Assembly (NCBI GenBank): GCA_018266555.1
Contig: JAFEAF010000014.1
Coordinates: forward strand, 98,181 to 162,180
Length of the DNA: 64,000 bases
DNA from: Bacteroidota bacterium
GTDB lineage: Bacteria > Bacteroidota > Bacteroidia > Chitinophagales > Chitinophagaceae
Reading direction: 5' to 3'
The notes under the pieces are model-generated. The model was not told the DNA's origin. It searched no databases and saw nothing but the letters and a program-made list of their open reading frames with translations. The position numbers were made by a program, and so were the translations under genes. This document shows, in pieces, positions 20,711 through 45,196 of the stretch. Numbering within the stretch: position 1 is the stretch's first letter; each line of letters begins with the position of its first letter.

Positions 20711-23677
20711 ATGCAACGGATCGTCGCCATTCTTGCATACTTTTTTATTTGTGTAGATTGCATCGCACAGCAATATCCCTTTGTTCATTACACTCCTAAA
20801 GATGGTTTGGTAAACAGCCGGGTAAAAAAAGCTTACCAGGACAGCAAGGGCCGAATGTATTTTCTTACTTTCGGAGGATTAAGTGTATTTGATGGAGTGA
20901 GGTTTAGAAACTATACTACACAAAATGGACTTGCAAGCAACATAGTAAATGATATATTGGAAGTCGGGGACGATTCGTTATTGGTAGCTTGTAATGCACC
21001 AACTCTTATTGCTTTGGTGAAAGGAAAATTAGAGACAGTAAAGACAAAAGGTATTCCCTCTCCTCTTATCAATCAATTTTATAAGCATGATGATGATCGC
21101 ATTTATCTTTCATCGGATGATGGATTATTTCTATTGGAAAAAAACACAATCCGTGCTTTAAATATTTCCCGGATTACAAAAGAACAACCCGATCTTCCTT
21201 TCCTCGGAAATATTACCGGCATCGGCAATTTTTTGATTATTACGACAAACGATATGAAATTTAATAAGGGAATTTTTGTTTATGATATAAAAGCCAATCG
21301 CATTTGTGATGCATTACCGATGAGTGGTTATTTGGTTGGAAAAGATAAAAAGGACCGGATCTGGTTTACCACAAACGAAAAACTACTTATCGTAGACCAA
21401 AATGCTCTGCAAAAGGGAAAGCTTTTGATCACGGATCCCAAGGAGGGATTTCAGCAGGTAAAAGATTACTCTACCGTTAATCTCACATTTGATATTGACG
21501 CTATTTGGGTTGTATTCAGAAATAAGGAATTTAGAAACTCCGAGATCCGGCGTATCAATGAAGATGGAACGGTATTCAGTATGCCATTGCCGGAACAAGC
21601 TACCATTTCTTATATCAAAAATATTTTTATTGATCGTGAAAACACGGTTTGGCTGAGTAATGATGGCGAAGGTGTTTTTAAGATCATTAATTCTCCATTG
21701 CAGATCTCTGAAAAGCCTCTTGGTAAAACGATAGAAAGTTCGATTGGAAATGTTTTTTATTCTTCGGGAATTACATGGTATGGAACCACTACAAAAAAAT
21801 TGTTCCGCAGATCTGCGGATAAATTGGAGGAATTCAATTGTAATCTTCCTTTTGCTCCAGTAGTATTTTATGAATGGGGAAATGAGATTCTTGCGAATGA
21901 TGGGAAAAATATATATGAAGCTCTTTTTCGGCCAGCTAAAAGAATCATCGAATTCAAAAAGACTATTTCATTGCCTGACAGCGATTTTTTTATTAAAAAA
22001 ATTGTTACTGATAAAAATGGGGCCATTATTTCTGGCCAAAAAACCGGTATAAATGTATGGATGAATAATAAATCTGTTTTTCATTTGCCGATAGATAAAA
22101 ATGAATTGGCGGAAGAACTTTTTTTTGATAAGAATGATCGGCTTTGGATAGTGAAACGTTCCGGGGAAACAACTGTGTTCGAACTTCATCCTGAAAATCC
22201 TTCACAATATCTGCAACCTGTTTTTCGGTTTGAGAAAGAACAGATCATTGGCTCGCCACGAAGTTTTGTTATTGATAAAAAGGAGATCATATGGATCGGA
22301 ACAAGAAATGACGGGATCAGTGGGTATGAACAAAAAGGTAATCACTTGAAACAATTGTATCATTTTTATTCAGGCAATGGACTCACAGATAATTTCGTTA
22401 CCGCTTTGGCCTGTGATTCGTTGAATAATATTATAGTCGGCACTCAAACTGGCCTTGACCGTATCGTATTTGATTCAACAATCACATGGCGTATAGAAAA
22501 CCTTAGCAAGAGCAGTAATTTTTTTGGCTATATTAATCAAACATGGGCTGATTCAAAACAAGCCTATGCACTTACTCCCTCAGGAGTTCTTTTGCAGGTT
22601 TCACCAATTGTTGAAACAAAAAGAAGTACCAGTCCTGAATTATTATTAGAAGAGATGAGGGTGAATGCACAAATCATGACAGGGAGAACAAATTTTAACC
22701 ATAAAGAAAATAATATTAGTTTTTTGGTGGCAGCTCCAAGTTTTATTGACGAAAAACAAGTGACTTATACCTATTTACTGGAAGGCTCCGGAAACAATCA
22801 ATGGAGTGATACGGCTTCAACTAACGCAGTCATTAATCTTACCAATCTATCAGCAGGTGATTATACACTAAATGTGAAGGCTTTTTTTCCTTCTTCAACT
22901 TATCAGCCTGCAGCACTTTCCTATTCATTCCAGGTAATGCCACCCTGGTGGCAAACATGGTGGTTCCGAAGTATTGCCGGATTAATAGTTTTGGGAATAT
23001 CAGTTCTTGGATTGCGATTCTATTATAAACGGCGATTAGAAAAACAAATGGCCACATTGGAAAAACAAAAAGCCATTGAACAGGAACGAACACGAATCGC
23101 AACCGACATGCATGATGACTTAGGCGCCGGGTTATCCAGAATAAAATTTTTGACTCAATCGATACTTAATAAAAAAGGGAACGATGAAGTGGCCACTGCA
23201 GAATTGGAGAAGATAACTTTGTTCTCTGATGAGATGTCTGAAAAAATGGGCGAGATCATTTGGGCTCTCAACGAAAAAAATGATATACTGGCGGACCTTG
23301 TTGCCTATACAAGGTCTTACACTATGGAATATCTCGCCCAGCACAATATAGAATGTGAGGCCGATACACCTTTGCATTTACCCGATAATTTTATTACGGG
23401 AGAAATGCGCCGTAATATTTTTTTATCTGTAAAAGAATGTTTACACAATATTGTAAAACATGCTCAGGCATCGAAAGTATTTTTCTCCATACAATTGAAT
23501 GGAAGGATGCAGATCATTATTCATGACAATGGAAAAGGCATAGACTGGAATAACCAACGGGCATTTAGTAATGGAATTGAAAATCTCAAAAAAAGGATGA
23601 AAGAAATAAACGGTTCTGTAAGTTTCTCAAATGACGAAGGAACCAAAGTTTTGTTGACGATGCCATTAAATTTATAA
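20711..23677 (+). CDS. sensor histidine kinase (copy 1) with an extracytoplasmic beta-propeller-repeat/Y_Y_Y-type sensor domain; HisKA_3-type
   Basis: 988 aa. Signal/TM at the N-terminus, a ~700-aa repeat-rich sensor, PPWWQTWWFR plus a single TM, the H-box ERTRIATDMHDDLGAGLSRI, and an ATPase domain (HNIVKHAQA, HDNGKGI). It is a paralogue of 31172-34147. Confidence 0.9.
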   Translation: MQRIVAILAYFFICVDCIAQQYPFVHYTPKDGLVNSRVKKAYQDSKGRMYFLTFGGLSVFDGVRFRNYTTQNGLASNIVNDILEVGDDSLLVACNAPTLIALVKGKLETVKTKGIPSPLINQFYKHDDDRIYLSSDDGLFLLEKNTIRALNISRITKEQPDLPFLGNITGIGNFLIITTNDMKFNKGIFVYDIKANRICDALPMSGYLVGKDKKDRIWFTTNEKLLIVDQNALQKGKLLITDPKEGFQQVKDYSTVNLTFDIDAIWVVFRNKEFRNSEIRRINEDGTVFSMPLPEQATISYIKNIFIDRENTVWLSNDGEGVFKIINSPLQISEKPLGKTIESSIGNVFYSSGITWYGTTTKKLFRRSADKLEEFNCNLPFAPVVFYEWGNEILANDGKNIYEALFRPAKRIIEFKKTISLPDSDFFIKKIVTDKNGAIISGQKTGINVWMNNKSVFHLPIDKNELAEELFFDKNDRLWIVKRSGETTVFELHPENPSQYLQPVFRFEKEQIIGSPRSFVIDKKEIIWIGTRNDGISGYEQKGNHLKQLYHFYSGNGLTDNFVTALACDSLNNIIVGTQTGLDRIVFDSTITWRIENLSKSSNFFGYINQTWADSKQAYALTPSGVLLQVSPIVETKRSTSPELLLEEMRVNAQIMTGRTNFNHKENNISFLVAAPSFIDEKQVTYTYLLEGSGNNQWSDTASTNAVINLTNLSAGDYTLNVKAFFPSSTYQPAALSYSFQVMPPWWQTWWFRSIAGLIVLGISVLGLRFYYKRRLEKQMATLEKQKAIEQERTRIATDMHDDLGAGLSRIKFLTQSILNKKGNDEVATAELEKITLFSDEMSEKMGEIIWALNEKNDILADLVAYTRSYTMEYLAQHNIECEADTPLHLPDNFITGEMRRNIFLSVKECLHNIVKHAQASKVFFSIQLNGRMQIIIHDNGKGIDWNNQRAFSNGIENLKKRMKEINGSVSFSNDEGTKVLLTMPLNL

Positions 23678-23719
23678 CGTTCGTCATATTGGTAAATGTA
23701 ATTACCGCCATTAATTTTA
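23675..23719 (+). promoter_or_regulatory. island motif (diverged copy TAACGTTCGTCATATTG) + N20 + TAATTTTA box, upstream of regulator 1
   Basis: The 17-mer occupies 23675-23691; its first 3 nt are the TAA stop of the kinase. Exactly 20 nt later TAATTTTA occupies 23712-23719. The ATG is at 23727. Confidence 0.45.
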
Positions 23720-23726
23720 GACGCAC

Positions 23727-24353
23727 ATGCCGATTAAAGTTTCAATAGTCGAAGATCTTACTGAAGTAAGGGATGGCCTTGCTGAATTAGTTTCATCAGA
23801 TAAAGAACTCTCAATGGTCGGTAGTTTTGAAGATGCCGAGTCTGCGGTTCTAAAATTACCAGTGCTTCATCCTGATATTGTGATAATGGATATCAACCTT
23901 CCCGGTATGAGTGGTATTGATTGCATTCGAAGTGTAAAAGAAAAATGCCCCAATACTCAATTCATGATGTTCACTGTCTATGAGAACGATGAAAAAGTTC
24001 TGCAGGCATTACAAGCAGGAGCATCTGGCTATTTATTGAAAAGGACTGAACCACAAAGAATAGTCGAAAGTATAAAAGAGCTCAACCAGGGAGGCTCGCC
24101 AATGAGCAGCAATATTGCCCGCAAGATTTTAAATATTTTTCTCCAGGAAAAGAAAATAACAAAAAAAGAAATTTTGTCTGATCGTGAGAATGAAGTCTTG
24201 GAGCTATTGGCTGGTGGATTATTGTATAAAGAAATTGCAGAAAAACTTTTCATTACTCATGGTACGGTGCGTCAGCACATCCACAACATTTACGAAAAAC
24301 TGCATGTTAATAATCGGACCGAGGCCGTAAACAAATATTTCGATCGAAAATGA
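23727..24353 (+). CDS. NarL/FixJ (LuxR-type HTH) response regulator, copy 1
   Basis: Receiver domain (IVEDL...PDIVIMDINLPGMSGI...K) followed by a LuxR HTH (LSDRENEVLELLAGGLLYKEIAEKLFITHGTVRQHIHNIYEKL). Confidence 0.92.
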   Translation: MPIKVSIVEDLTEVRDGLAELVSSDKELSMVGSFEDAESAVLKLPVLHPDIVIMDINLPGMSGIDCIRSVKEKCPNTQFMMFTVYENDEKVLQALQAGASGYLLKRTEPQRIVESIKELNQGGSPMSSNIARKILNIFLQEKKITKKEILSDRENEVLELLAGGLLYKEIAEKLFITHGTVRQHIHNIYEKLHVNNRTEAVNKYFDRK

Positions 24354-24363: not shown

Positions 24364-24381
24364 CTATAACATTCGTTATAG
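24364..24381. promoter_or_regulatory. perfect 7-bp inverted repeat CTATAAC-ATTC-GTTATAG (candidate operator or weak hairpin)
   Basis: Read directly from the sequence. It shares the TAAC-N4-GTT core with the 17-bp island motif and lies about two helical turns upstream of the motif copy at 24389. Confidence 0.4.
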
Positions 24382-24388
24382 ACAATCC

Positions 24389-24433
24389 TGACTTTTTTTC
24401 TATTGTTTTCAATTCATCAGTCTTCTACCTTCA
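24389..24433 (+). promoter_or_regulatory. island motif (TGACTTTTTTTCTATTG, 15/17) + N20 + TACCTTCA, upstream of the OmpA-like gene
   Basis: 17-mer at 24389-24405; a weaker -7-like box at 24426-24433; ATG at 24476. Confidence 0.4.
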
Positions 24434-24475: not shown

Positions 24476-25708
24476 ATGAAAAGAATTTTTATCCTGGCAA
24501 CATTCCTTGTTGTTGCTACTCTTACGAACGGACAAATATTGAAAAAAATTGCTGATAAAGTAAAAAATAAAATCGGAACAACGCCAACAGAAAAAAAAGA
24601 CAATACTCAGAATAAAAAACCAGAAACAAATACTACAAATAATACGCAGACAGACGCCGACACGGTAAAAGAAAATAAATTCGCTTCATCTGCTATACTA
24701 AAAATTTATAGTAAATATGATTTTGTGCCGGGAGAAAAAATTGTTGTCTTTGAAGATTTCATGCAGGACGCTGTCGGTGATCTTCCCGCTAAATGGAATA
24801 CAAATTCAGCCGGGGAAACAGTAACAATCGAAGGAAAACAAGGACATTGGTTCCAATTGACCAAACCGGGCTGGTTCATGCCTGATTTTATAGATTCTCT
24901 TCCCCAGGATTTTACTCTTGAATATGATATGTTCGCAGACGCACCGGTGCACTCCTGGGGAATCACAACTTCCCTGGCTGAATTAAAAAACAAGGAGAAG
25001 CCTACCGACGAACAAGAGCATATCAATTCTTTCACATTAAACATAATCCCGGGAGTTGACGCAAATGGTGTCACTGAATATACTAGAAAAAAAAATAGCG
25101 TTGGTGAACAAGGAACCAATGCAAAGACCAGTCATTTCAGTGATATCACAAAGACTTACCATATAGCTATCTGGCGTCAGAAAGAAAGATTGCGTATCTA
25201 TTTTGATGAAGACAAAGCATGGGATGTTCCCAAAGCATTTTTGCCGGAAGCAAAACTGAATGCAGTTTACTTCTTCATGCAATTAACGGACAACTGGCAT
25301 TTTTTTATCAGTAATATCCGTCTCGCCGTTGGTGCACCGGATACACGCAATAAAATACTTACACAAAACAAATGGGTGACACACGGAATTCTTTTCGATG
25401 TGAACAGCGACAAGATCAAACCAGAGTCATACGGAACATTAAAGGAAATGGCAAATGTTCTGAAAGAATACACAGATCTCAAAGTAAAAATTATTGGACA
25501 TACTGATGCAGATGGAAGTGATGCTGCAAATCTTGATCTGTCAAAACGAAGGGCTGCCGCCGTAAAAGAATCTTTGATAAAAGAATTTAGTATTGATGCA
25601 AGCCGGATGGAAACTGATGGTAAAGGTGAAAGTGAACCGATTGATAAAAATGATACTCCTGCGGGGAAGGCGAATAATAGAAGAGTTGAGTTTATTAAAT
25701 CAAATTAA
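24476..25708 (+). CDS. OmpA-family (peptidoglycan-associating) envelope protein with an unknown beta-rich N-terminal domain
   Basis: Signal peptide MKRIFILATFLVVATLTNGQ. C-terminal OmpA domain: IGHTDADGSDAANLDLSKRRAAAV...NRRVEF. Confidence 0.85.
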   Translation: MKRIFILATFLVVATLTNGQILKKIADKVKNKIGTTPTEKKDNTQNKKPETNTTNNTQTDADTVKENKFASSAILKIYSKYDFVPGEKIVVFEDFMQDAVGDLPAKWNTNSAGETVTIEGKQGHWFQLTKPGWFMPDFIDSLPQDFTLEYDMFADAPVHSWGITTSLAELKNKEKPTDEQEHINSFTLNIIPGVDANGVTEYTRKKNSVGEQGTNAKTSHFSDITKTYHIAIWRQKERLRIYFDEDKAWDVPKAFLPEAKLNAVYFFMQLTDNWHFFISNIRLAVGAPDTRNKILTQNKWVTHGILFDVNSDKIKPESYGTLKEMANVLKEYTDLKVKIIGHTDADGSDAANLDLSKRRAAAVKESLIKEFSIDASRMETDGKGESEPIDKNDTPAGKANNRRVEFIKSN

Positions 25709-25721: not shown

Positions 25722-27875
25722 ATGCGAATACTGATATTCTTTTTCCTGTTTTCTTTTATTATTCAGCCTGCATTTACTCAAGTCCCTACTAAGCAGGAAA
25801 TGCAGAACCAGATGGCTCAGGTAGTTAAAGAATTGAATGAACAGATTGCTGACCTTGAAAAGCAAATTGCAGAAGCAAAGAAAAACAAGGAAGATGATTC
25901 GGTAATAAAAGAATTGCAAGACCAGATGGCCCTATTGAAAAAACAAGTGGAAATGATGGGTGGTCTGAAAAAAAACTTATCGGGCATCTCCGAGAAAACA
26001 ATAAAAAATATTGAAGCAGATGATAACAATACTGAATTACCCAAAAGGGATGTGGCAAGAATAAAACAATTACCCGATAAAATTCTTTCGGATGCAGAAT
26101 TGGTTCCCTATGTACAAAAAATACATGCACAGGTAGAAAACATCCTGACTCAAAAAGATAAAGCAGAAGCTCAAAAAATCTATGCTGCATTAAAAGCAGA
26201 AAAGAAATCATCCAACGAAATAAACAATACTGTAAGCAGTCTCTGGCTGAGCGGCTATACTGAAATAGCCTTGTATATAATGGGAAAAGAATGTGTTGCT
26301 AATATGAAAGATGTAAATATTCTTAACAACTATGCAGCTTTTCTTGCAATGAAAGGTGGCGAACATGCAGCGCTACCCATTCTTCAAAATCTGCACAAGA
26401 AGTATCCTGCTAACAGTACCATATTGAATAACATCAGCCAGTCCTGGTATGGACTGGGTGATATGAACAATGCAAACAGGTATCTCGATAGTACCGTAAA
26501 AATTTATAAGAATCATTCGCAAGCAAACCAAACCAAGAGTAAAATTGAAAAATCTGAAGGCAAGACACAGGAATCAATTGAATCTCTCAAAAGATCAATA
26601 AAAGAAAATTATACCCCTGAAAAAGAAGCGAGGCTGACTGAATTGGGAGGGAAACTGGAATATGATGATATAGTTTTTCGTTACCCGGCCAAAGCAGAAC
26701 CTTTAGGAATAGAAAAATTCATGTTCATAATACCTTCTTATCCATTTGTAGCAGGGGTCGAATCCAAGAAAGCCAGAATGGAATGGGATGATTTTAAAGA
26801 AAAGGTGTGGGCTGCTGTTAAAAAAATTGAAGATGATAGAAGAGTAATCGAAAAAAAAGTTGAAAATTATTCAAACCGTTTATTAACTAATCCGCTATTA
26901 TTAAAACCATACAATAATACGGTGTACTTAACATCTGCCCGCAAACTGAAACTACTCTATGATTGGTACACTGACAGGTTTCTGGCACTTGAAAAAAAAA
27001 GACAAGCAGCATCTGATTCAGTAAAAAAATGGAAGGATGAATTAAATAAAGTCATCCTTGCTCTTGGAGATGATCCGCAAAACCCAAATGCAAATTGTGG
27101 CAAAATTCAATCTTTATCAACGAGTTTTTTAACGAAAGCCAATACACTTTGGCAACAACGAAATGCAGAATTATTGTCTTTAAACAAACAAAAACTGAAT
27201 GCAGAAGCCACCTATAGCCTGTATGGCACTCATGATCAGTCATTATATGAGTTACAGATCGTAAATATCAAATTGTCATTTTTACTGTTCCTTGGAAATT
27301 TGGCCTGTGAATTTTCATCAGGTTGTACCACTACAACAGCTCAAAAACCTCCAGGAAAATTCTTGCCGGATTTTGATTCCCTGAACTGCCAATACAAAGA
27401 GGAATATAATATTCCACCATTTACCAATATTAAAATTGAATGTAATAAAATGACGACTGTGTTTGATATTGACACCGAACTTGGATTAAAGGTAAAATTG
27501 GGATGGGAAGAAAATCTTAATTCCGGAAAAATCACAAAAGGAACAATTGAAATGACTGCAGAAGCAGGAACAGACGTTGCTAAGTTTGGCCCGGTTGGAG
27601 CCGAATTAAAAGGAAGCGGGTCGGTAGGTGTTGAAATTACAAGTGAAGGTGTTCAGGAAGTTTACATCAAAGGAGCTTCTACCATTGATGTTTCCGGAAA
27701 TATTAATGGTGGCGAAATTACTCCCGGAGTACAATCAGATCCGAAAGGGATATCAGCTATGTCTGCTGAAGTAAAGATTAGCTGGAATGTTGGCGCTGGT
27801 CCTGCACAAGGCACCATGAACAGCAGCCTTAGTGGTGGTGGTATGCTGAATGCCGTTAATCTGAGTTTAAGATAA
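25722..27875 (+). CDS. secreted coiled-coil/TPR-like protein with a Gly-rich beta C-terminal module (copy 1), function unknown
   Basis: I place the start at the ATG at 25722 (MRILIFFFLFSFIIQPAFTQ, a signal peptide), just after the OmpA-like stop. The track's extension from 25593 overlaps the previous gene. It is a paralogue of 34894-36969. Confidence 0.7.
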   Translation: MRILIFFFLFSFIIQPAFTQVPTKQEMQNQMAQVVKELNEQIADLEKQIAEAKKNKEDDSVIKELQDQMALLKKQVEMMGGLKKNLSGISEKTIKNIEADDNNTELPKRDVARIKQLPDKILSDAELVPYVQKIHAQVENILTQKDKAEAQKIYAALKAEKKSSNEINNTVSSLWLSGYTEIALYIMGKECVANMKDVNILNNYAAFLAMKGGEHAALPILQNLHKKYPANSTILNNISQSWYGLGDMNNANRYLDSTVKIYKNHSQANQTKSKIEKSEGKTQESIESLKRSIKENYTPEKEARLTELGGKLEYDDIVFRYPAKAEPLGIEKFMFIIPSYPFVAGVESKKARMEWDDFKEKVWAAVKKIEDDRRVIEKKVENYSNRLLTNPLLLKPYNNTVYLTSARKLKLLYDWYTDRFLALEKKRQAASDSVKKWKDELNKVILALGDDPQNPNANCGKIQSLSTSFLTKANTLWQQRNAELLSLNKQKLNAEATYSLYGTHDQSLYELQIVNIKLSFLLFLGNLACEFSSGCTTTTAQKPPGKFLPDFDSLNCQYKEEYNIPPFTNIKIECNKMTTVFDIDTELGLKVKLGWEENLNSGKITKGTIEMTAEAGTDVAKFGPVGAELKGSGSVGVEITSEGVQEVYIKGASTIDVSGNINGGEITPGVQSDPKGISAMSAEVKISWNVGAGPAQGTMNSSLSGGGMLNAVNLSLR

Positions 27876-34189: not shown

Positions 34190-34195
34190 AGCCGC

Positions 34196-34835: not shown

Positions 34836-34880
34836 TAACTTTTGTGCTATTGCCCCGCTTTATCTGGCTGTGTAGCTTTA
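34836..34880 (+). promoter_or_regulatory. island motif TAACTTTTGTGCTATTG (16/17) + N20 + TAGCTTTA, upstream of the TPR-like gene, copy 2
   Basis: 17-mer at 34836-34852; box at 34873-34880; ATG at 34894. Confidence 0.5.
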
Positions 34881-36970: not shown

Positions 36971-38026
36971 ATGAACCAGTTTTTATTCCTGATCTTCCTT
37001 TTATTTTCAAACGCCTGCTTTGCTCAGGATTCAAAGAATGAAGCAAGGAGTTTTTATGAAAAAGAAATGGCTGTTTGCGGCGGAGAGGATTCCATATTCA
37101 GCAGAAAAGGAAAATGGAAAAGACAGGGTGAAGATAATTTAGTGTTTCCGGATAAAACATTTCCGAAAAGTCAATATAAATTTTCATTCGTCCGCCTCGA
37201 CAGCATTTTAGCGATGCTGATAAACAGCATCCTTGATTTAAGCGGAATGGAACCTCGCTGGCAAAGAATTATCCGGGAAGATGCTTATATACCTGGCGGG
37301 CCGGTACCCTACCATCTTTCTAATCTCTTTTTCACTTATTACTGTAACACTAACACGAACAAGATCCTATTGGGTGATGAAACTTTTAACTGGGTTTACG
37401 TATTTGTAAACAAAATGAATTGGTTTTTTCATGATGTAGATAAATGGATAATCAACGATGACGGTAAACCAAGAACCATTTACCAGCTTCCGCCCAAAGC
37501 CGGGAAATGGAAGGGAATGACTGTGTATGAACCGGATTTTTTCAATGGCACTCCGGCAAAAGTCACTCATCGGACTGTGGTGATCGGGCGCAATGGAAAA
37601 ATTCCCTGGCGAACGCTGACACAAAAAGAATATTTAACGGGACTGAAGAATGATTATGAAACGAAAGTAAAAAAATTTAAAGCGGGGTCCGGTTATGAAG
37701 CAGATTATAAAAATAAATTAAAGTACATCCATGACTATCTCTCCATCACCGATGAAGAAACCATACAACAGCCCGCTATCATTGATCCTAAATCGGGGAT
37801 TTGGGGTTTCAAAGGAAAATTCGGCGATGAAGAAGAAGGCGGATACCGCCTGGCGCTTTTCGGCGGCGGCACAAAATATTTTGATACCACCCTGCCCCGG
37901 TATGTTCCTCAACTTATTCAACTCATGTGGATATATAACACGAATGAGCCAGTGGCTTTACATTTCAAAAATCAATTTGAAGAAAATTTTCCTTTGGAAA
38001 AACTGAAAGCGATGATTGATAAATAA
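36971..38026 (+). CDS. secreted protein of the '...AMIDK' family, member C
   Basis: Signal peptide. GKWKGM, NGKIPWRTLTQKEYL, LPRYVPQLIQL, and the C-terminus FPLEKLKAMIDK. It starts 1 nt after the preceding stop. Confidence 0.75.
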   Translation: MNQFLFLIFLLFSNACFAQDSKNEARSFYEKEMAVCGGEDSIFSRKGKWKRQGEDNLVFPDKTFPKSQYKFSFVRLDSILAMLINSILDLSGMEPRWQRIIREDAYIPGGPVPYHLSNLFFTYYCNTNTNKILLGDETFNWVYVFVNKMNWFFHDVDKWIINDDGKPRTIYQLPPKAGKWKGMTVYEPDFFNGTPAKVTHRTVVIGRNGKIPWRTLTQKEYLTGLKNDYETKVKKFKAGSGYEADYKNKLKYIHDYLSITDEETIQQPAIIDPKSGIWGFKGKFGDEEEGGYRLALFGGGTKYFDTTLPRYVPQLIQLMWIYNTNEPVALHFKNQFEENFPLEKLKAMIDK

Positions 38027-38053: not shown

Positions 38054-39688
38054 ATGAAAACCGTAAATTTTTATTCGGTTGGCTTCGTTGTCCTGATAAT
38101 AGTTGCTTTCTCACAACAGTCGCTCAGCCAACTGACCAATTTTTATAGCAGCCCCAATTATTCAAATTTCATTAGCACCATGATTGATAATAGTATCTGG
38201 AAATCATCTATGGAAAATTATACAAAGGGATATAAAGGCAACTCCTCCGTTACTAAATCCCCCTCTTCAATAACATCTAAGCCCGAAGAAATTCCTGAGT
38301 ATCGCAGGTACCGGGCAGTTCAATTCAAACCAACCGGCACTAGGCTGGTATTGCAGGAATATCTTGATGCCGTCAAGATAAACGCAGCAGATAAAATAGA
38401 ATTAAAAGATTTGATTTTGAAAATTTTTAAAGAATACGAGGCAGAAGCTGCGGCGAAAGGTTATCCGAATGACTGGGCTTTAGCCTTTGTTTCTTACGTG
38501 GGGCTTAATAGCCATGTTTATAATGGTAACACGGAAAAACTGATTATTCCTTTTGAGCAAAATGTGGGATTGCGGGATGTAGTAGCTGAATATGCTACTG
38601 ACAACGGGCTTTTCAACAATGTGACCGATCAAAAAAAACAAGAATTATATGAACTCATGATTATTGCCGGTGGGCTTACCTATCACTATTATGAAAAAGC
38701 CTGCAGGGAAAAAAACGGTGAAGACATAAAAAGTTGCCGGCTTTCTGCGGAGCAAAATTTAAAAATTGCAGGCATCATACCTTCTTTAAAAAAACAAGAT
38801 GATAACTCAAGCAATAATCAAACCATCATGAACGGCTCCATCAGTATGAATGATTATGAATTCATCCCTCCTGAAAATTGGGAAACCAATAAAAATAAAG
38901 ATTTTATTTCCATAAAGAATCCCAGGTCCGGATGTATCATTCAAATACTCACACCACAGCCTTCTTCCGGAAACATAGAGCAAGATGCAAATGCTGTTTT
39001 TGAAATGATGTACAAAGGATGGAGCTATCAGCAGCAAGGTGAAAAAAGTTTTTTATTGTCCACAGGTATTTTACCAAAGGGGCAGGAATATTTTATGAAA
39101 GAAGGAACGATGACGGGGTACAATGGTAACGGACAGTATCTCATTGAAGAGGGTGTTGCTATGGTAGTAAAAGCAGGCAGTAAGATTGTGATTATTGCTG
39201 CCCGGCATAACAGCAGTTCATTGGGCCACGATGAATGTTACAGGAATTACAATACGTGGAGGCGGTTTATAAACAGCTTCTCCATCAAAAATATTTTGCC
39301 CGAAAAAAATAATGCACCTGATGCCAGGCAGAGAATTTTGGGTTTGTGGAAAATTATTTCAACCGGAGTGGTATCTGCAGACTATGTATTTGCCGCCAAT
39401 GGAAATTATGAACATGGTGGCGGGATAGGATCTTCCACTACCACATCCGATATGTATTATAAATATATTTATAACCGGGCCTATCCTTTCCAGGGAAGCG
39501 GCAGCTATACGATTTCCGGCGATCAGCTTTTATTGAAAAAAAGAAGTGAAAACAATACAGAGCAAATAAGATTCCGGTTTGAAAAAATAAATCATGGAGG
39601 CGCCGGATGGAAAGATAAAATCTGGTTGTTAAAAAAAGATAATTTGGGAGAATCGGAAGTATGTTATGAAAAAGAAACGAAGGAATGA
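38054..39688 (+). CDS. secreted hypothetical protein (544 aa)
   Basis: Hydrophobic N-terminus ending SLSQ. No motif recognised. It is in the same operon-like run of genes. Confidence 0.65.
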   Translation: MKTVNFYSVGFVVLIIVAFSQQSLSQLTNFYSSPNYSNFISTMIDNSIWKSSMENYTKGYKGNSSVTKSPSSITSKPEEIPEYRRYRAVQFKPTGTRLVLQEYLDAVKINAADKIELKDLILKIFKEYEAEAAAKGYPNDWALAFVSYVGLNSHVYNGNTEKLIIPFEQNVGLRDVVAEYATDNGLFNNVTDQKKQELYELMIIAGGLTYHYYEKACREKNGEDIKSCRLSAEQNLKIAGIIPSLKKQDDNSSNNQTIMNGSISMNDYEFIPPENWETNKNKDFISIKNPRSGCIIQILTPQPSSGNIEQDANAVFEMMYKGWSYQQQGEKSFLLSTGILPKGQEYFMKEGTMTGYNGNGQYLIEEGVAMVVKAGSKIVIIAARHNSSSLGHDECYRNYNTWRRFINSFSIKNILPEKNNAPDARQRILGLWKIISTGVVSADYVFAANGNYEHGGGIGSSTTTSDMYYKYIYNRAYPFQGSGSYTISGDQLLLKKRSENNTEQIRFRFEKINHGGAGWKDKIWLLKKDNLGESEVCYEKETKE

Positions 39689-39741: not shown

Positions 39742-41064
39742 ATGAAAAAAATACTGACTGTTCTTTTACTTTTTGCCCTGCAAAGTTTAAATGCACAAAC
39801 AGACAGTTCATTGCTAAAATTTAATGAGTCTGGAGATTTTACCGGGTTTGGCGACCCTGATGGAAAACCGGTAAGTAAGGAAATAACTGTGGCAGGCGGA
39901 ACCATCCTTTCTGAGGACGGAAGAGTGGAATTAATTTTTCCAGAGGGCGCATTAACAGTAAATACCAACATCAGCATTCAGCCAACTACAAATCTTTTAA
40001 ATAGTGGAACAGGCAAAGCTTATAAGTTTGAACCATCAGGCATACAATTCAAAAAGCCGGTACAAATTATTTTTCATTATACAAAAGAGGAATCTGAAAC
40101 CTGCCCGGCTGACCTGATGAATATTGCCATGCAGGATCAAAATGGTAAGTGGAGTTTTGATAAATATGAAGAATGGGATAGTACCACAAATACTTTAAAG
40201 GGCTTTATCCATCATTTTTCTTATTACGCCAATTCCAATGGAGCCCGGATTTCACCGGCAAAGAATTTTATTATTGTAGAAAGTAATGTAAATATTAATT
40301 TTTATGACCGGTACGGTACTGTTCAGTCGGGTCCGCTTATCGGGAATAGTGATCGTCTTTCAGTAGGAAGCAGGTATTGGGTGGTGAATGGTGTCAGGGA
40401 AGGTAGTGATGTGGAAGGCTTTGCCACTGCGCCACCAATCGGCACTTCGCTGGGTGTATATACAGCCCCAAAAATAATGCCCCCAAAAAATCCGGTAGTC
40501 ATCCATCTGTTTTTTGAATACTATTCGGAAATATTAATGAAAGAAGTTTGGGGCGTAGTAAGCTGCAAAATCCTAGTGTATGATGAATATAAAATAGAGA
40601 TCAATCATGAATATACCGGAAGAGCATCCATGCACAGCAAAATTGGTGATAAAGGAACTTTCGTGGTTCGTGTTTCGCCAAATCGTAATTTCAGAATAAG
40701 TGAAATAAAAAACTATGAACCCGTTGTAATCAAAGAAGGAAGGAATGGTCCTTTCAAAGAAAAAGTGTTTACTGACGGTTACCCGGGAACTATTGATATA
40801 ACCGACTCCCATCTTTCAGACAGTTTAAGCCATGATTATCCTCCCGAAGTTTATTTTGAATTTGCGCCAAAGGAAATTGTCATGTGTGAAATTCAGCACA
40901 ATGCCCGGGGTATTTATGGGGAACGGGGACCGGTTACCTTTATGCGTGTGCCCGAAGAAATCAATTTCATTGCTAATGGACAGAAACAGCGCTATAACAT
41001 AACCATAGGGCGGGGTGAAACATATAAACTTATTGTGACGCCACACGGCAGGGGAAATCAATAA
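39742..41064 (+). CDS. secreted protein with an N-terminal ZU5-like domain carrying an HFS motif, followed by an Ig-like region and an unknown C-terminal domain (copy a)
   Basis: Signal peptide MKKILTVLLLFALQSLNAQ. ZU5-like pattern GGTILSEDGRVELIFPEGAL...ISIQP...YKFEPSGIQFKKPVQIIFHY...GFIHHFSYY. The HFS codons are at 40213-40221. Confidence 0.65.
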   Translation: MKKILTVLLLFALQSLNAQTDSSLLKFNESGDFTGFGDPDGKPVSKEITVAGGTILSEDGRVELIFPEGALTVNTNISIQPTTNLLNSGTGKAYKFEPSGIQFKKPVQIIFHYTKEESETCPADLMNIAMQDQNGKWSFDKYEEWDSTTNTLKGFIHHFSYYANSNGARISPAKNFIIVESNVNINFYDRYGTVQSGPLIGNSDRLSVGSRYWVVNGVREGSDVEGFATAPPIGTSLGVYTAPKIMPPKNPVVIHLFFEYYSEILMKEVWGVVSCKILVYDEYKIEINHEYTGRASMHSKIGDKGTFVVRVSPNRNFRISEIKNYEPVVIKEGRNGPFKEKVFTDGYPGTIDITDSHLSDSLSHDYPPEVYFEFAPKEIVMCEIQHNARGIYGERGPVTFMRVPEEINFIANGQKQRYNITIGRGETYKLIVTPHGRGNQ

Positions 41065-41127: not shown

Positions 41128-41711
41128 ATGATACCGGTAAAAAAAACTTCACTGTCATTCTGGCTATCTTTATCCAGCAATTATCTGCACAGAATATTTT
41201 ATTTACCGCCAATTTTGAAAATAAAAAGATTGATTCGTCATCGTGGCAAATTGTAACCGGTAACTGGCGTATTTGCGATGTGGATGAAATGAGAATAGCC
41301 CCGGCAGAAAATGGTTACCGGTATATGTTACTGTCGGGCGGCAAAGGTTATACGGGTGATAATATTATTCGTCTCATTGTAGATCTGCCGGATTCGCTTA
41401 AAGCCAAAAAGATTAAACTAAGTTTCTCTTATTATATTCCCGCCAATGTAATGGGAACAAAAATGGAAGTTGAATTTATTCAAAAGGAAATAAAAGACGG
41501 ACGGAGAGGCATTCTTTGGGTAGATCTTTTACGACGTGTAAAAGAAAAGTGGACGGCCTATCAAAAAACAGTAAATGTTCCTGCGGGTGCCAATTCAGTT
41601 TACATCACTTTCTTTGGTTTTAAATCTTCAGGCGATAAAGACAGGATGGTTTGCTTTGATAATATTGCTGTTTCATGGATAAACCAATTCATTAAAAAAA
41701 CAACGGAATAA
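41128..41711 (+). pseudogene. secreted beta-sandwich (CBM/LamG-like) protein interrupted by a frameshift in an A8 tract
   Basis: The ATG at 41128 (MIPVKK) is in the +1 frame relative to the long ORF. That ORF is open from 41127 and reads ...KKNFTVILAIFIQQLSAQNILFTANFENKK...CFDNIAVSWI. The two frames meet at the A8 run (41139-41146), and A9 would fuse them. The track instead starts at an internal GTG (41280). Confidence 0.55.
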
Positions 41712-41753
41712 CTTTTGTTCTATTGCCGGTAAGAACCAATTCAGTTAGCTTTT
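41709..41753 (+). promoter_or_regulatory. island motif TAACTTTTGTTCTATTG + N20 + TAGCTTTT, upstream of ZU5-like gene b
   Basis: 17-mer at 41709-41725; its TAA is the stop of the preceding gene. The box is at 41746-41753 and the ATG at 41772. Confidence 0.5.
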
Positions 41754-41771
41754 ACACAAATTAAAAGCAAA

Positions 41772-43112
41772 ATGAAACAATTTTTCTTACTGGTTTTTTT
41801 ATCACTGTATGGAATATGTTTATATGCCCAAAATGACAAACAAAGTAAACCATATAGTACTCCCTTTGGAACTCCGTTTGGGAAAATTATCAGTGCAAAA
41901 ATTGATAGCCGGGGTGGTGAACTAAGATCGGAAGATAGCGGGCTTGAAATAATCATTCCGGGAGCTGCGCTTGATACCAGCACAACTATTTCAATACAAT
42001 CCATACATAACGAACTAAACGAAAATGACGAAGGCGCATATCAGTTGGAACCAACAGGAATAAACTTTAAAAAACCGCTTCAGCTCATTTTTCATTTTAA
42101 AGACTCAAACGTTGACATTAAACGTATCGGATGGCAGGATTCAAAAGGAATTTGGCATAGTGTAAATGGAGCGGTTATTGATACAGTACAAAAAACTATT
42201 TGCTGTTTTGTTTCACATTTTAGCCGCTGGTCCAGATTTGATAAAATTTATTTAAGCCCTAACAAAGCAAGGGTTAAAGTGAATAAAACCGTTTCATTTA
42301 CAATTATCAGCCTCGAAGATATCAGGGATCGTCTGGGCGATGAACTTTCCGCATCTTCGGATGATAACAGTAGTGATGATAATGCACTTTTAGCAGCACC
42401 ACATCCTTATCATTACTTTAGCAGAGAATGGACAGTAAATGGAATAGTCAACGGAGATAATACTGTTGGAACAGCAACGAAACAAGATAACCGCCATGCT
42501 GTTTACAAAGCCCCCGGCACCACTCCGCAAAACAATCCCGTTGCTGTTTCAGTACAAATTCTCTCAGATAAAAACCAAAAGCTTTTACTGACAAGCAATG
42601 TTACCGTCATTGGTGATCAATATCATTTCACCTACATTCACATTGACGAAAACGGATGTTTTTTTTTGGTGGATTCTTCAAGCTGCATTATCAACATGCA
42701 AAAAGATAAGGTTAGTATTTCTAATATCATCAATTATAAACCCTGGAGTGATTGGCCTCAGTGTGATAAGCCCTGCAAGACGACCTGGACCAACAAAGAA
42801 TCCCTTAAAGGCTTAGTAGAAATTACAGGCATTACGGGTTCAAGCGTAACGCCTGCTTCAGAAGGAGTGCTTCCAAATGTGAATATTGTTTTTGCACCCG
42901 CAATGGGTAATACACCCTCAGAATCAGTTACCTGCAAAGATCACAGCTTTAACGTTCCAAGCATGCCGAGAATGGCAGATCCAAAAATCATCAACTTTGA
43001 TATTGATGGCGACGATGTCATCATTCATTATGCAGGTAAAGCATCGAGAAATGAATTGGTGCTTACAGGCAAAGAAGAAAAAACGATGATTTACATCTAT
43101 AAGGTGAACTAA
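41772..43112 (+). CDS. secreted ZU5-like/HFS protein (copy b)
   Basis: Signal peptide. GGELRSEDSGLEIIIPGAAL...ISIQS...YQLEPTGINFKKPLQLIFHF...CFVSHFSRW. The HFS codons are at 42216-42224. It is colinear with 39742-41064. Confidence 0.65.
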   Translation: MKQFFLLVFLSLYGICLYAQNDKQSKPYSTPFGTPFGKIISAKIDSRGGELRSEDSGLEIIIPGAALDTSTTISIQSIHNELNENDEGAYQLEPTGINFKKPLQLIFHFKDSNVDIKRIGWQDSKGIWHSVNGAVIDTVQKTICCFVSHFSRWSRFDKIYLSPNKARVKVNKTVSFTIISLEDIRDRLGDELSASSDDNSSDDNALLAAPHPYHYFSREWTVNGIVNGDNTVGTATKQDNRHAVYKAPGTTPQNNPVAVSVQILSDKNQKLLLTSNVTVIGDQYHFTYIHIDENGCFFLVDSSSCIINMQKDKVSISNIINYKPWSDWPQCDKPCKTTWTNKESLKGLVEITGITGSSVTPASEGVLPNVNIVFAPAMGNTPSESVTCKDHSFNVPSMPRMADPKIINFDIDGDDVIIHYAGKASRNELVLTGKEEKTMIYIYKVN

Positions 43113-43154
43113 CTTTTGTTCTATTGTTATTAAATAACCAAGCCGGTAAATTTA
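43110..43154 (+). promoter_or_regulatory. island motif TAACTTTTGTTCTATTG + N20 + TAAATTTA
   Basis: 17-mer at 43110-43126; its TAA is the stop of ZU5-like gene b. The box is at 43147-43154 and the ATG at 43182. Confidence 0.5.
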
Positions 43155-43181
43155 AAATTTAAATCCTCACATATATTTAAA

Positions 43182-43868
43182 ATGAAAATTAATGTTGTCC
43201 TGATCTTAACAGTAAATCTTTGGACCTGTCAACAATCAACGGCACAAACGATTGTCAAAAAAGGAACGAAATACGATACCATTATCCGGAAGCATGTTAC
43301 GAAGCCGGTTCTAAAACCAAAGCCAAAAATTGCCATTGTAAAACCACCGGATACTACAAAAATAGTAGTAATGCCCACTCCGGAATTTGTGAATCAACCT
43401 TATTATTTTGATAAAGACAATAATAAACTGATAAAGCTGGAAAATGCCACAGCTCAAATGGTGACGAGGAAGAAAACATTAGGACTGAAAGGCGCTAAGC
43501 AATCGCTCACTATGGATGGCACATCATCGAATATCCGGTTTACGGCAAAAAAAGATATTGGCTTTATGATCAAAACAAGCGGCGATGTGATTGATCTTAC
43601 TTCTTATATCAAACTATACCAGTTTGTGCCATTAGATCAGAAGCGGGAAGTGACCATCAATTCAAAAGAAGGGCTATTGACTGACAAAGAAGAATCAAAA
43701 GGAAAGCTGATCAACTTTAGTGTAAAAATGATCGCTGCAGATAATTACCTGATCCAATTATCAGATCAATTAGAAGCTGGTGAATATGGATTTGTTTGGG
43801 TAAAAAATATGGAGCTGAAAGAGTTTATCGTTTTTGCTTTTGGAATAGACTGGAAAAGCAGTAATTGA
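43182..43868 (+). CDS. secreted hypothetical protein (228 aa), paralogue of 44567-45196
   Basis: Signal peptide ending STAQ. Motifs shared with the 209-aa protein: PEF.N..YF..KDN..LI.LE, L.G..SN.R, GEY.F, and the C-terminal FAFGI(D/N). Confidence 0.6.
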   Translation: MKINVVLILTVNLWTCQQSTAQTIVKKGTKYDTIIRKHVTKPVLKPKPKIAIVKPPDTTKIVVMPTPEFVNQPYYFDKDNNKLIKLENATAQMVTRKKTLGLKGAKQSLTMDGTSSNIRFTAKKDIGFMIKTSGDVIDLTSYIKLYQFVPLDQKREVTINSKEGLLTDKEESKGKLINFSVKMIAADNYLIQLSDQLEAGEYGFVWVKNMELKEFIVFAFGIDWKSSN

Positions 43869-43877
43869 TCCGTATTC

Positions 43878-43922
43878 TAACTTTTGTTCTATTGCCCGGC
43901 CCTAACTTTAATACGAACTTTC
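43878..43922 (+). promoter_or_regulatory. island motif TAACTTTTGTTCTATTG + N20 + GAACTTTC
   Basis: 17-mer at 43878-43894, 10 nt after the preceding stop. The box is at 43915-43922 and the ATG at 43935. Confidence 0.45.
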
Positions 43923-43934
43923 AAAAAAAATAAT

Positions 43935-44567
43935 ATGAAAAGAAACTATCTCTTCGCTATTGTATTGTTACCATTAAGCGCACTTGCTCAACTCGGCATC
44001 GGGTTAAAAGGTGGATTGAATTTTGCCAATGTCTCCGGTGCCTCTTCCATAAACAGCAGCAACCGCTCCGGATTCCATGTGGGTGTATTCCTGGCACCAG
44101 CCGGTAAAAGTATCATCAGTTCCCGGACAGAATTAGAATATTCCCGGCAGGGTTATAGTTTCAAATCCGGCGCCAATACCGGCAATGTAAACCTGGATTA
44201 TATTTTGTTACCACAATTAATGGGTATCAACATCACTAAGTTTGTCCAGATACAACTCGGTGCCCAGATGGCTTTTCTCCTCAATGCCAAAGCAGACAGT
44301 ACCAATACGGGGGGAAGCTCCGGTCCTTATAGTTCTATTATGAGCTACTACAATAAATTTGATTACAGCTTTGCAGCCGGTGCGGAAATCCATCCTGTAT
44401 CCGGATTACTGATCGGGGCAAGGTATAATATTGGCCTCGGCAAAATTTATAAAAGTATGGAATCCGGTCAAATGCCTTCCTTTAGTACGGAAGACGCCAA
44501 AAACAATGTTGTACAAATTTTTGCAGGTTGGACGTTTGGTAATAACTCATCAAAAAAGAAAAAATAA
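43935..44567 (+). CDS. small outer-membrane beta-barrel protein (porin-family/OMP_b-brl-like)
   Basis: Start at MKRNYLFAIVLLPLSALAQ. Alternating-hydrophobic strands (GIGLKGGLNFANV, GFHVGVFL, ...VVQIFAGWTF), with an aromatic residue near the C-terminus before a Lys tail. Confidence 0.75.
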   Translation: MKRNYLFAIVLLPLSALAQLGIGLKGGLNFANVSGASSINSSNRSGFHVGVFLAPAGKSIISSRTELEYSRQGYSFKSGANTGNVNLDYILLPQLMGINITKFVQIQLGAQMAFLLNAKADSTNTGGSSGPYSSIMSYYNKFDYSFAAGAEIHPVSGLLIGARYNIGLGKIYKSMESGQMPSFSTEDAKNNVVQIFAGWTFGNNSSKKKK

Positions 44568-45196
44568 TGAAAAAAATATTTTTATCATCAATGCTGATAG
44601 CAGTGATGAACTTTCCTAATGCGCAAACATATCCTGATCCGGAATTTGCAAATGAAATCTATTTTTTAAAAAAAGATAACCCGTATTCATTGATACGTCT
44701 TGAGAAAGGCGCTTCCAAAATGGAGACAAAAACCAATATGATCAAAGGTTCTGAACAAGGATATTCTCTGGACGGCACCAAATCCAATGTAAGAATCCAG
44801 GGTGGAAATAATCTGTCTTTTGTTTTTTCAACCGGGACATCATCCTCATCTTCAAACAGCAGATCGGATTCAATGATGAAAGCAAACGGTGTCGACTCCA
44901 AGATGCTGAACCTGGAAGGTATGATGGATCCCACCAACAACATTACACTTTATAAAATGGATATAGCAAAAGATCAAAGAAAAATTTACCTGATGAAACA
45001 AGGTGGTTATTTCGGCAGTCATAAAAACCAGAGCAGTGATAAGTACACATTCAGCCTGAAAAAAATCAGGGACGGATATTGGGAATTAGTGATAGATAAA
45101 CCCTTGCCAAAGGGTGAGTATGCTTTTACTACGATGGGAATGGGCATGCCGTCCATGGATGGAGGGATGACTCTCTTTGCTTTTGGTATCAATTGA
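44567..45196 (+). CDS. secreted hypothetical protein (209 aa), paralogue of 43182-43868
   Basis: ATGA start/stop overlap with the OMP gene. Signal peptide MKKIFLSSMLIAVMNFPNAQ. C-terminus TLFAFGIN. Confidence 0.6.
   Translation: MKKIFLSSMLIAVMNFPNAQTYPDPEFANEIYFLKKDNPYSLIRLEKGASKMETKTNMIKGSEQGYSLDGTKSNVRIQGGNNLSFVFSTGTSSSSSNSRSDSMMKANGVDSKMLNLEGMMDPTNNITLYKMDIAKDQRKIYLMKQGGYFGSHKNQSSDKYTFSLKKIRDGYWELVIDKPLPKGEYAFTTMGMGMPSMDGGMTLFAFGIN

Follow-up and report, generated by a model that had tools for sequence, protein, structure and literature searches.

Two paralogous NarL-type sensor/regulator cassettes with distinct predicted operators in a conserved envelope gene island of uncultured Chitinophagaceae-type Bacteroidota

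Does a row of genes without recognisable function that follows a sensor kinase and its regulator form one regulated system with them? This question is raised by a block of 18 genes at positions 20711-45196 (24.5 kb) of a 64-kb stretch of Bacteroidota DNA from contig JAFEAF010000014.1; the stretch is called the window here. An initial annotation of the block had described two tandem cassettes, A and B, each with a kinase (A1, B1), a regulator (A2, B2) and a series of signal-peptide proteins, referred to below as the cargo (A3-A7 and B3-B11). All 18 genes lie on the + strand and are separated by short intergenic gaps. Judged from its gene content and its recurrence in other genomes, the block is a real, widely conserved, sensor-linked envelope gene island of uncultured Chitinophagaceae-type bacteria. 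We interpret it as two ancient paralogous NarL-type two-component regulons, which would drive envelope proteins anchored to the peptidoglycan or the outer membrane, and assign this reading a probability of roughly 60%.

The regulatory half of the block is, by its domain content, of the NarL class. The kinases A1 (20711..23677, +) and B1 (31172..34147, +) are both proteins of about 990 residues in which Pfam profiles identified Reg_prop, Y_Y_Y, HisKA_3 and HATPase_c domains; A1 consists of a signal peptide, a beta-propeller/Y_Y_Y periplasmic sensor, a transmembrane segment and the HisKA_3 and HATPase_c domains. The latter two exceeded the Pfam cut-off in both kinases, while Y_Y_Y scored over the cut-off in A1 and just under it in B1. 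An H-box (...RIATDMHDDLG...) was present in both. The two kinases terminate after HATPase_c and carry no fused REC domain or AraC helix-turn-helix (HTH); their regulators are separate GerE proteins of about 208 residues, A2 (23727..24353, +; REC and GerE HTH) and B2 (34196..34825, +). Both regulators matched Response_reg (E 1e-24 and 2e-23) and GerE (E 9e-18 and 2e-17) in Pfam and share the conserved motif ..DIVIMDINLPG... The two kinase and regulator cassettes that had been predicted were thus recovered, and the peptides quoted as common to them (AQQYPF.., PPWWQTWWFR and ERTRIATDMHDDLGAGLSRIKFL in the kinases; PDIVIMDINLPG.SGIDCIR and FTVYENDEKV in the regulators) were found in the translations. 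In NCBIfam, the regulators were NarL-like with a best score of 140 against a cut-off of 250 bits, and the kinases scored 57-73 bits against MctS, for which the cut-off is 700. These scores lie so far under the equivalog cut-offs that the proteins are not orthologues of named systems (NarXL, UhpBA, LiaSR, MctSR, MadSR). Literature searches for Y_Y_Y combined with HisKA_3, or for DUF6683, a cargo domain described below, turned up nothing.

The similarity of the two cassettes had been attributed to duplication in situ, and a comparison across genomes did not bear out a recent event of this kind. Regulators of the A clade shared 75-92% identity with A2 and about 57% with B2, and those of the B clade shared 71-78% with B2 and about 62% with A2, whereas A2 and B2 are 58% identical to each other (BLASTP). 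The same was observed for the kinases, where orthologues of A1 elsewhere reached 57-79% identity and B-type kinases up to 59%, compared with 39% between A1 and B1 (BLASTP). Recent in-situ duplication was therefore rejected, and the duplication must be older than the divergence of these genomes. On this orthology the two cassettes are ancient paralogous modules that have been shuffled between genomes. The sensors of A1 and B1 (37% identity) have diverged more than their kinase cores (56%), which is consistent with the two kinases responding to different signals.

The non-coding DNA after the regulator gene was conserved across genomes. A 14-nt element, TAACWTTYGTYMTA, was matched seven times in the window, against 0.61 expected (one mismatch allowed; the maximum in 100 shuffles was four), and all seven matches lay on the + strand and inside the block. 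Each was located upstream of a gene, 51-109 nt before the start codon. Two operator forms were distinguished, namely type 1 (A), TATAAC-N4-GTTATA, which belongs to A2 and A3, and type 2 (B), TAACTTTYGTTCTA, i.e. TAAC-TTTY-GTTCTA, which belongs to B2, B3, B8, B9 and B10. A common promoter/operator element therefore links the regulators with the cargo, which supports the sensor control of the cargo that the initial annotation had suggested.

At the A2 promoter (23675..23719, +), a type-1-like operator TAACGTTCGTCATA (23675-23688) is followed by TTG (23689-23691), a 20-nt spacer and the −7-like box TAATTTTA (23712-23719), with 52 nt to the start codon. The type-2 promoters follow the same plan of operator, TTG and 20-nt spacer, and differ in the final box and the distance to the start: B2 (34145..34189, +; operator TAACTTTTGTTCTA, box TACTTTCG, 51 nt), the B3-B7 operon (34836..34880, +; operator TAACTTTTGTGCTA, box TAGCTTTA, 58 nt), B8 (41709..41753, +; box TAGCTTTT, 63 nt), B9 (43110..43154, +; box TAAATTTA, 72 nt) and B10-B11 (43878..43922, +; box GAACTTTC, 57 nt). 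The A-type OmpA promoters differ, since there the palindrome TATAAC-N4-GTTATA is separated by 19 nt from CTATTG, which is followed by the 20-nt spacer and TAnnTT. In the window, this form precedes the A3-A7 operon (24365..24433, +) as the perfect palindrome TATAAC-ATTC-GTTATA (24365-24380), 19 nt, CTATTG (24400-24405), the spacer and the −7-like box TACCTTCA (24426-24433); its TAACWTTYGTYMTA site is at 24367, 109 nt from the start codon. Four of the seven operators open with a TAA that also serves as stop codon for the gene before it (23675-23677 for A1, 34145-34147 for B1, 41709-41711 for B7 and 43110-43112 for B8), so that the promoter begins exactly at the end of the preceding coding sequence, an unusually compact arrangement. 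The predicted −7 boxes of the regulator genes (23712-23727; 34182-34196) end 6-7 nt before the ATG, as they do in loci L001, L015, L017, L020, L024, L028, L050 and L054; given this distance, transcripts of the autoregulated regulators would be leaderless or nearly so. A sigma-70 promoter scan of the block was uninformative, as expected for Bacteroidota.

The element was also enriched outside the window. Across 71 related loci (984 kb), TAACWTTYGTYMTA was matched 69 times against 11 expected; 68 of the matches were on the strand of the system, 23 preceded OmpA genes and 23 preceded regulator genes. TTG followed the element in 41/47 cases and TAnnTT stood exactly 20 nt further on in 43/47, with a free spacer sequence. 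Compared with the published Bacteroidota −33/−7 consensus, TTTG / TAnnTTTG (PMC2483708; PMC9723704), this TTG-N20-TAnnTT layout predicts a promoter of that class with the element abutting the −33 box. The form of the element agreed with the clade of the adjoining regulator. Type 1 was found downstream of 18/19 and upstream of 9/19 A-type regulators (two further upstream matches fit both patterns), type 2 was found downstream of 9/13 and upstream of 12/13 B-type regulators, and no clear cross-type case stood beside A- or B-type regulators among 27 and 21 clear cases, respectively. That operator type tracks regulator clade points to two separate circuits, which are apparently autoregulated. When one metagenome collection was scanned with one exact type-2 17-mer, 57/86 downstream open reading frames (ORFs) belonged to families of this locus. 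The named remainder were mostly signal-peptide or surface proteins and included an S8 protease, PD40 propellers, fibres that carry an S74 chaperone domain, and NHL and FG-GAP repeat proteins; one unrelated protein carries a T9SS (type IX secretion system) tag.

Gene order further connects the cargo with the regulatory genes. A survey with AMIDK patterns (the AMIDK family is a cargo family with three members in the block), in which one genome per species was used, gave 70 loci, all in metagenome-assembled genomes (MAGs) and nearly all labelled Chitinophagaceae, Ferruginibacter, Sphingobacteriales or plain Bacteroidota. The recurring order was [kinase-regulator]-OmpA-TPR-AMIDK(x1-3)-[A7], where TPR stands for a protein with tetratricopeptide repeats. 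The TPR and AMIDK unit was sometimes repeated, and accessory modules (B9-barrel-B11, ZU5 and DUF6683) recurred. Directly upstream of the first AMIDK gene, 33/51 assessable loci had a TPR homologue and 6/51 had another ORF of at least 600 residues; an OmpA gene was upstream in 31/41 assessable loci. In many genomes, AMIDK and TPR homologues thus stand beside the kinase/regulator pair seen here, the question for which the initial annotation had recommended a survey. The pairing is not universal, with kinase and regulator genes upstream in 18/32 assessable loci and the OmpA-TPR-AMIDK trio occurring without them in some lineages. About 20 loci adjoin osmC/scpA and seven adjoin dxs, so that the island is one of variable content at a fixed chromosomal site. 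One complete genome carries the order kinase-regulator-OmpA-TPR with no AMIDK gene called adjacent. Single loci occurred in bins labelled Acidobacteriota, Acidimicrobiia and Ignavibacteriota and may be mis-binned contigs or transfers.

Within the window, the predicted ORF coordinates were confirmed apart from the starts of A4 (25722, not 25593) and B2 (34196). Cassette A continues with A3, which has a signal peptide and a peptidoglycan-binding OmpA_C domain (24476..25708, +), A4, a coiled-coil/TPR protein of 717 residues with a signal peptide (25722..27875, +), the AMIDK-family proteins A5 (27964..29082, +; 372 residues) and A6 (29090..30217, +; 375 residues, 31% identical to A5), and A7, a signal-peptide protein of 211 residues (30247..30882, +). 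In cassette B, the regulator is followed by the coiled-coil/TPR protein B3 (34894..36969, +; 691 residues; TPR_1/2/8 in Pfam), which is a paralogue of A4 in its N-terminal part, and by the AMIDK paralogue B4 (36971..38026, +; 351 residues; BLASTP). The claim of one gene order in both regions therefore held for kinase, regulator, TPR and AMIDK genes only, as an OmpA gene is present in A alone. BLASTP recovered all six paralogue sets that had been listed, including, besides the kinases and regulators, A4/B3 (25% identity over about 250 residues of the N-terminal part only, E 9e-18), the three AMIDK paralogues (28-31%), the ZU5-like proteins B6/B8 (32%) and the 228/209-residue pair B9/B11 (27%).

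OmpA_C is the domain that would anchor A3 to peptidoglycan, and it was found at residues 306-402 (Pfam, E 6e-25). The domain matched PorE, Pal and YiaD models, all below the NCBIfam cut-offs (for PorE, 48 bits with a cut-off of 600). The N-terminal domain, about 220 residues long, is the most conserved part of the cargo, with 48-68% identity across genomes, and at least 908 proteins contain it; nearly all of those listed also carry OmpA_C. It gave weak ConA/LamG-like hints (Laminin_G_3 matched 1/13 members, E 0.004), and a search against sequence profiles of the Protein Data Bank (PDB) returned noise only. Pfam found no barrel family in the N-terminal 300 residues, and no Cys was present near the signal-peptide cleavage site. 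Hidden paralogy between this domain and B7 was rejected by a negative profile-profile test.

The AlphaFold model of A4 (predicted local distance difference test, pLDDT, 77.7) comprises a coiled coil (24-103), about four to five TPR repeats (124-307), a helical bundle with helices of 44-49 residues (346-525) and a low-confidence, Gly-rich beta-hairpin C-terminus (559-707). Matches in a PDB sequence-profile search were confined to the TPR and coiled-coil parts. Four Cys residues are invariant in the A4 family, and some homologues are labelled 'TolA-binding protein' by one source. Barrel proteins usually end in an aromatic residue. An outer-membrane barrel in A4 was not accepted, as the region is of low confidence in the model and neither A4 nor B3 ends in this way. 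The large proteins upstream of AMIDK genes form subfamilies that are alike only in an N-terminal coiled coil of about 83 residues, which behaves like an interchangeable module for docking or oligomerisation. One further subfamily of about 720-745 residues (e.g. L001 7836-10004 and L007 6626-8815) is A4-like over the first 83 or so residues, that is, the signal peptide and coiled coil, and then fully divergent.

The AMIDK family is named after its invariant C-terminal ..AMIDK and also has a near-invariant Cys pair. It is small and lineage-restricted: at 50% identity it accounts for 493 of 1.84 billion representatives, and at 90% identity for over 546 clusters, none of which bears a name. No match was obtained in Pfam, NCBIfam or PADLOC, nor against PDB sequence profiles at E values up to 10. 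The AlphaFold model of A5 was nevertheless confident (pLDDT 91.2; predicted template modelling score, pTM, 0.85). A CsgG/HpaA-like lipoprotein fold was considered and not accepted, as the Foldseek matches were weak and local with a template modelling (TM) score of at most 0.29, and hidden paralogy with DUF6683 was rejected by a negative profile-profile test. None of the libraries searched contained a described counterpart of the cargo core or of the AMIDK fold.

The accessory cargo lies under the B-type operator. B5 (38054..39688, +; 544 residues) is a DUF6683 protein (Pfam, E 1.3e-19), and this domain is found together with ZU5-like genes in L075 and occurs also in L064. B6 (39742..41064, +; conserved HFS motif) and its paralogue B8 (41772..43112, +) are ZU5-like, with borderline Pfam scores of 18.3 and 22.0 bits, respectively, against a cut-off of 21. 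Eukaryotic ZU5 domains (PIDD, UNC5CL) cleave themselves at an HFS motif. HF[ST], a possible self-cleavage motif, was present in 15/15 relatives whose aligned sequence covers the region (13 HFS and 2 HFT). B9 (43182..43868, +; 228 residues) and B11 (44567..45196, +; 209 residues) are signal-peptide proteins and paralogues of each other (BLASTP); between them lies B10 (43935..44567, +), a small outer-membrane beta-barrel protein (OMP_b-brl_2, E 5e-17) that also matched the NCBIfam TDE1717 family below its cut-off. The OmpA_C domain, the barrel and the HF[ST] motif were the anchoring clues of the initial annotation, and each was recovered. The trio of B9-like, small barrel and B11-like genes (43182-45196 in the window) recurs in L029, L050, L064 and L067, often with type-2 promoters of its own. 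Members of the A7 family often follow AMIDK genes elsewhere, and longer ones carry Calx-beta (recorded on the L001 homologue). A7, B9 and B11 gave nothing in Pfam, NCBIfam or PADLOC. NCBIfam gave no informative match for the cargo, and a permissive Pfam search of sub-regions (the OmpA N-domain, A4/B3 C-termini, A7, B9, B11, the C-terminal halves of B5 and B6, and A5) yielded only a weak CBM_4_9 match in the repaired B7 and a noise-level DUF6733.

B7 (41128..41711, +) is frameshifted. A run of eight A's at 41140-41147 puts its ATG at 41128 out of frame with its body, which starts at 41139; with six or nine A's the two would be in frame. Once repaired, the product shows a signal peptide and the weak CBM_4_9 match. 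The identical run was present in eight independent assemblies, and a sequencing error was therefore rejected. B7 is either a fixed pseudogene-like gene or one expressed through transcriptional or translational slippage.

Signal peptides can indicate where the cargo is located. All 14 downstream ORFs have a signal-peptide-like N-terminus, as had been predicted, with B7 included after repair of its frameshift. In 12/14, Gln directly follows the likely cleavage site. Peptides of the signal-peptidase-I type with Gln after the cleavage site are the usual Bacteroidota pattern. No canonical lipobox was evident in the 14 proteins, and no T9SS C-terminal domain (Por_Secre_tail / TIGR04183 / TIGR04131) was found in them with Pfam and NCBIfam. 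The secreted or extracellular nature that had been proposed for the cargo is hence unproven, since Sec peptides of the signal-peptidase-I type without a T9SS signal do not support export past the periplasm or outer membrane. A location in the periplasm or outer membrane is more likely from these signals.

From the observed gene content, gene order, promoter/operator architecture and regulator-operator covariation, we propose the following mechanism. The periplasmic beta-propeller/Y_Y_Y sensor of each kinase would detect a cue, its ligand, outside the cytoplasm, and the kinase would phosphorylate its own NarL/LuxR-type regulator. A dimer of this regulator would bind its own inverted repeat (TAAC/GTTA), in an operator which abuts the −33 TTG and is centred near −42; at the OmpA promoter the operator would act from about two helical turns farther upstream. 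Binding would activate, rather than repress, the internal promoter of the regulator's own gene (autoregulation) and the operons of the signal-peptide proteins. We consider wiring of this kind, as read from the DNA, very probable. The cargo would cross the inner membrane via Sec and stay in the periplasm or outer membrane. Its core would comprise the OmpA_C protein with a possibly lectin-like N domain, the coiled-coil/TPR/helical-bundle protein of about 700 residues and one to three AMIDK proteins, and the B operators would add the ZU5-like proteins, the outer-membrane barrel between B9 and B11, and DUF6683. A3 might tether to peptidoglycan as part of an assembly with A4/B3 and the AMIDK proteins, which might remodel the envelope or cell surface upon the cue. 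This role of the cargo in envelope assembly is tentative. In its boldest form, which we hold to be speculative to a like degree, the OmpA-like anchor, the A4-type protein and the AMIDK proteins would make up a previously undescribed peptidoglycan-tethered envelope machine, e.g. an outer-membrane-spanning or surface-display device, specific to Chitinophagaceae-type Bacteroidota, turned on through two insulated sensor/regulator/operator circuits, with the shuffling of modules at one fixed chromosomal site as the source of its diversity. A peptidoglycan-related role may also be hinted at by one locus in a MAG labelled Bacteroidales (L004 6580-11113, the same as L010), in which the trio stands without kinase or regulator among cell-wall genes. 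Its neighbours encode a YkuD L,D-transpeptidase, MurB, an EPSP_synthase-family (MurA-like) protein, Amidase_3 and NamZ.

Several observations weigh against this reading. The link between regulator and element rests on sequence, and common ancestry of adjacent DNA could account for part of their covariation; another factor could also recognise the element instead. In some lineages the OmpA-TPR-AMIDK trio occurs without a kinase or regulator, and in Niastella vici, the one cultured relative examined, an OmpA-type gene stands alone and the rest of the system is absent. Subtypes of the TPR proteins showed no clean pairing with those of AMIDK, and a specific TPR-AMIDK complex is thus not supported by co-evolution. 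Foldseek with the A5 model found nothing convincing in the PDB (best HpaA, E 9e-4, TM 0.14-0.29) and nothing below E 0.1 among viral structures (BFVD), and with A4 only the TPR part matched. Pfam, NCBIfam, PADLOC, PDB profiles and Foldseek together yielded generic domains only (OmpA_C, TPR, OMP barrel, DUF6683, borderline ZU5 and weak CBM_4_9), from which the biochemistry of the cargo is not assignable. The initial annotation had likewise recognised no enzyme, transporter, SusC/SusD or glycoside-hydrolase signature in the cargo; with the cargo unassigned to well-known families and its homologues co-localised with two-component pairs in other genomes, neither of the two counts on which its proposal could have been refuted applies.

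Alternative explanations were weighed against the same evidence. As most of the cargo is unannotated, family searches alone give no functional link, and the genes might be unrelated hypothetical genes that happen to stand beside two ordinary two-component systems. The gene order, however, recurs in dozens of species-level genomes, the intergenic gaps are short, and the promoter/operator element is common to the genes and confined to the block; a chance cluster is refuted by these gene-order and motif statistics and retains hardly any probability. A more serious objection concerns the element itself, which might be an extension of the −33 region that is recognised by a dedicated alternative sigma factor, or by a different DNA-binding protein, from a gene elsewhere; the adjoining kinase/regulator pairs would then have other targets or an indirect role. 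It stands at a fixed distance from the −7-like box and always on the coding strand, as promoter elements do, and alternative-sigma motifs are known in flavobacteria (PMC9723704). The type-1 form is nevertheless perfectly palindromic, which is what one would expect of the site of a dimeric HTH protein. The form of the element also goes with the clade of the adjoining regulator without a clear cross-type case, and at the OmpA promoters the palindrome stands 19 nt from TTG and hence behaves as a module of its own, apart from the −33 element. Pfam also found no sigma-factor gene among the block genes. We regard a sigma-type element as improbable.

Somewhat less improbable, and still unlikely, is a non-canonical system for sensing and capturing polymers, a distant analogue of a polysaccharide utilisation locus (PUL), in which the Y_Y_Y sensor would detect an oligosaccharide or another fragment of a polymer, and lectin-like, CBM-like or Calx-beta-bearing envelope proteins, once induced, would bind the polymer at the cell surface, e.g. 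in floc or biofilm attachment. The Reg_prop/Y_Y_Y architecture is that of the Bacteroides hybrid sensors, which are associated with PULs (PMC3243724). The weak CBM_4_9 match of the repaired B7, the ConA/LamG hints in the OmpA N-domain, the A7 homologues with Calx-beta, the fibres, propellers and T9SS-tagged protein encoded behind the type-2 element elsewhere, and the frequency of the organism in activated sludge would all fit such a function. On the other hand, the lectin and CBM matches are all under their family cut-offs, the core proteins lack any surface-export signal, and Pfam and NCBIfam detected no SusC/SusD, glycoside hydrolases, other carbohydrate-active enzymes or transporters in the block, in agreement with the earlier statement that it is not a PUL. 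A variable defence or immunity locus, in which diversifying periplasmic paralogues would neutralise phage, predators or toxins that target the envelope, with the sensors responding to attack on it, could account for the variable gene content between conserved flanks (dxs; osmC-scpA), for the several paralogues (AMIDK x3, ZU5 x2 and B9/B11) that are merely 25-32% identical, and for the envelope targeting of all products. Against it, PADLOC returned only the generic OmpA/MotB domain of A3 against ZorB models and no match for nine other cargo proteins, by which a known defence system was rejected; no toxin, nuclease, recombinase or mobile-element gene was found in the block, G+C content is flat throughout, and the 48-68% identity of the OmpA-type component across genomes is atypical of arms-race genes. 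Defence is accordingly the least probable of these three functional alternatives, and two NarL-type regulons with envelope cargo remain our preferred reading.

Comparison with described systems places the two halves of the island differently. Like the NarL/FixJ-class systems (NarXL, UhpBA, LiaSR, GacSA), it has a HisKA_3 kinase core and a REC-GerE regulator, a proposed inverted repeat with a short spacer near the promoter and an internal regulator promoter that suggests autoregulation. Unlike them, its sensor is a periplasmic double beta-propeller/Y_Y_Y module of about 745 residues instead of a four-helix or intramembrane one, the promoters are of the Bacteroidota −33/−7 type and the regulon consists of uncharacterised envelope proteins. 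With the hybrid two-component systems of Bacteroides PULs it shares the Reg_prop and Y_Y_Y periplasmic sensor and the control, here predicted, of adjacent envelope-protein genes; it differs in a separate NarL-type regulator in place of a fused REC and AraC, and in the absence of SusC/SusD and carbohydrate-active enzymes from the block. The resemblance to PorE and Tol-Pal/CpoB, which combine an OmpA_C module and TPR repeats in the periplasm, is one of general logic only: here the two modules are on separate adjacent proteins, there is no canonical lipobox and no T9SS or Tol gene near the island, and the N-terminal domain of A3 and the non-TPR rest of A4 are unrelated. Among OmpA/Pal-type proteins, A3 has OmpA_C but neither the N-terminal eight-stranded barrel of OmpA nor the lipobox of Pal, YiaD and YfiB. 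B8 and B6 may resemble eukaryotic ZU5 proteins (PIDD, UNC5CL) in the borderline domain and the HF[ST] of all 15 relatives, and they differ in being bacterial signal-peptide proteins with unrelated C-terminal halves and a marginal match.

Newly described here are the 14-nt element TAACWTTYGTYMTA and the pairing of two operator variants with regulator clades. Activated sludge, soil and freshwater are rich in Chitinophagaceae-type bacteria, of which, to our knowledge, neither the envelope biology nor the gene regulation has received much study. Two paralogous sensor/regulator pairs, whose proposed operators differ in a few bases and track the regulator type, provide a directly testable regulatory model, and the locus offers a defined Bacteroidota promoter layout of the activator type. 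The regulon can be traced in metagenomes through the DNA motif alone. For structural work, the AMIDK family combines a confident predicted structure with no detectable structural relative and belongs to a conserved three-gene core. The insulated circuits might be used as regulated expression tools for Bacteroidota, and the function of the cargo, once solved, could bring to light an envelope or adhesion mechanism that is new and bears on the formation of flocs.

The surroundings of the block agreed with the housekeeping flanks reported earlier, with dxs at the left and osmC/scpA at the right, and the host organism recurs in activated-sludge and other metagenome assemblies. Rfam gave no RNA-family match in the block. 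A terminator scan detected a 10-bp hairpin (45212..45235, no strand assigned to the feature) between B11 and the convergent osmC, which forms a terminator-like end of the island; the hairpin was called on the − strand and formally fits osmC, and its use by the island is inferred. Just upstream of dxs, on the − strand, lies a LytS-type (His_kinase family) sensor gene (17477-18559) with an adjoining ORF of 242 residues on the same strand, which would be a third signalling gene beside the island.

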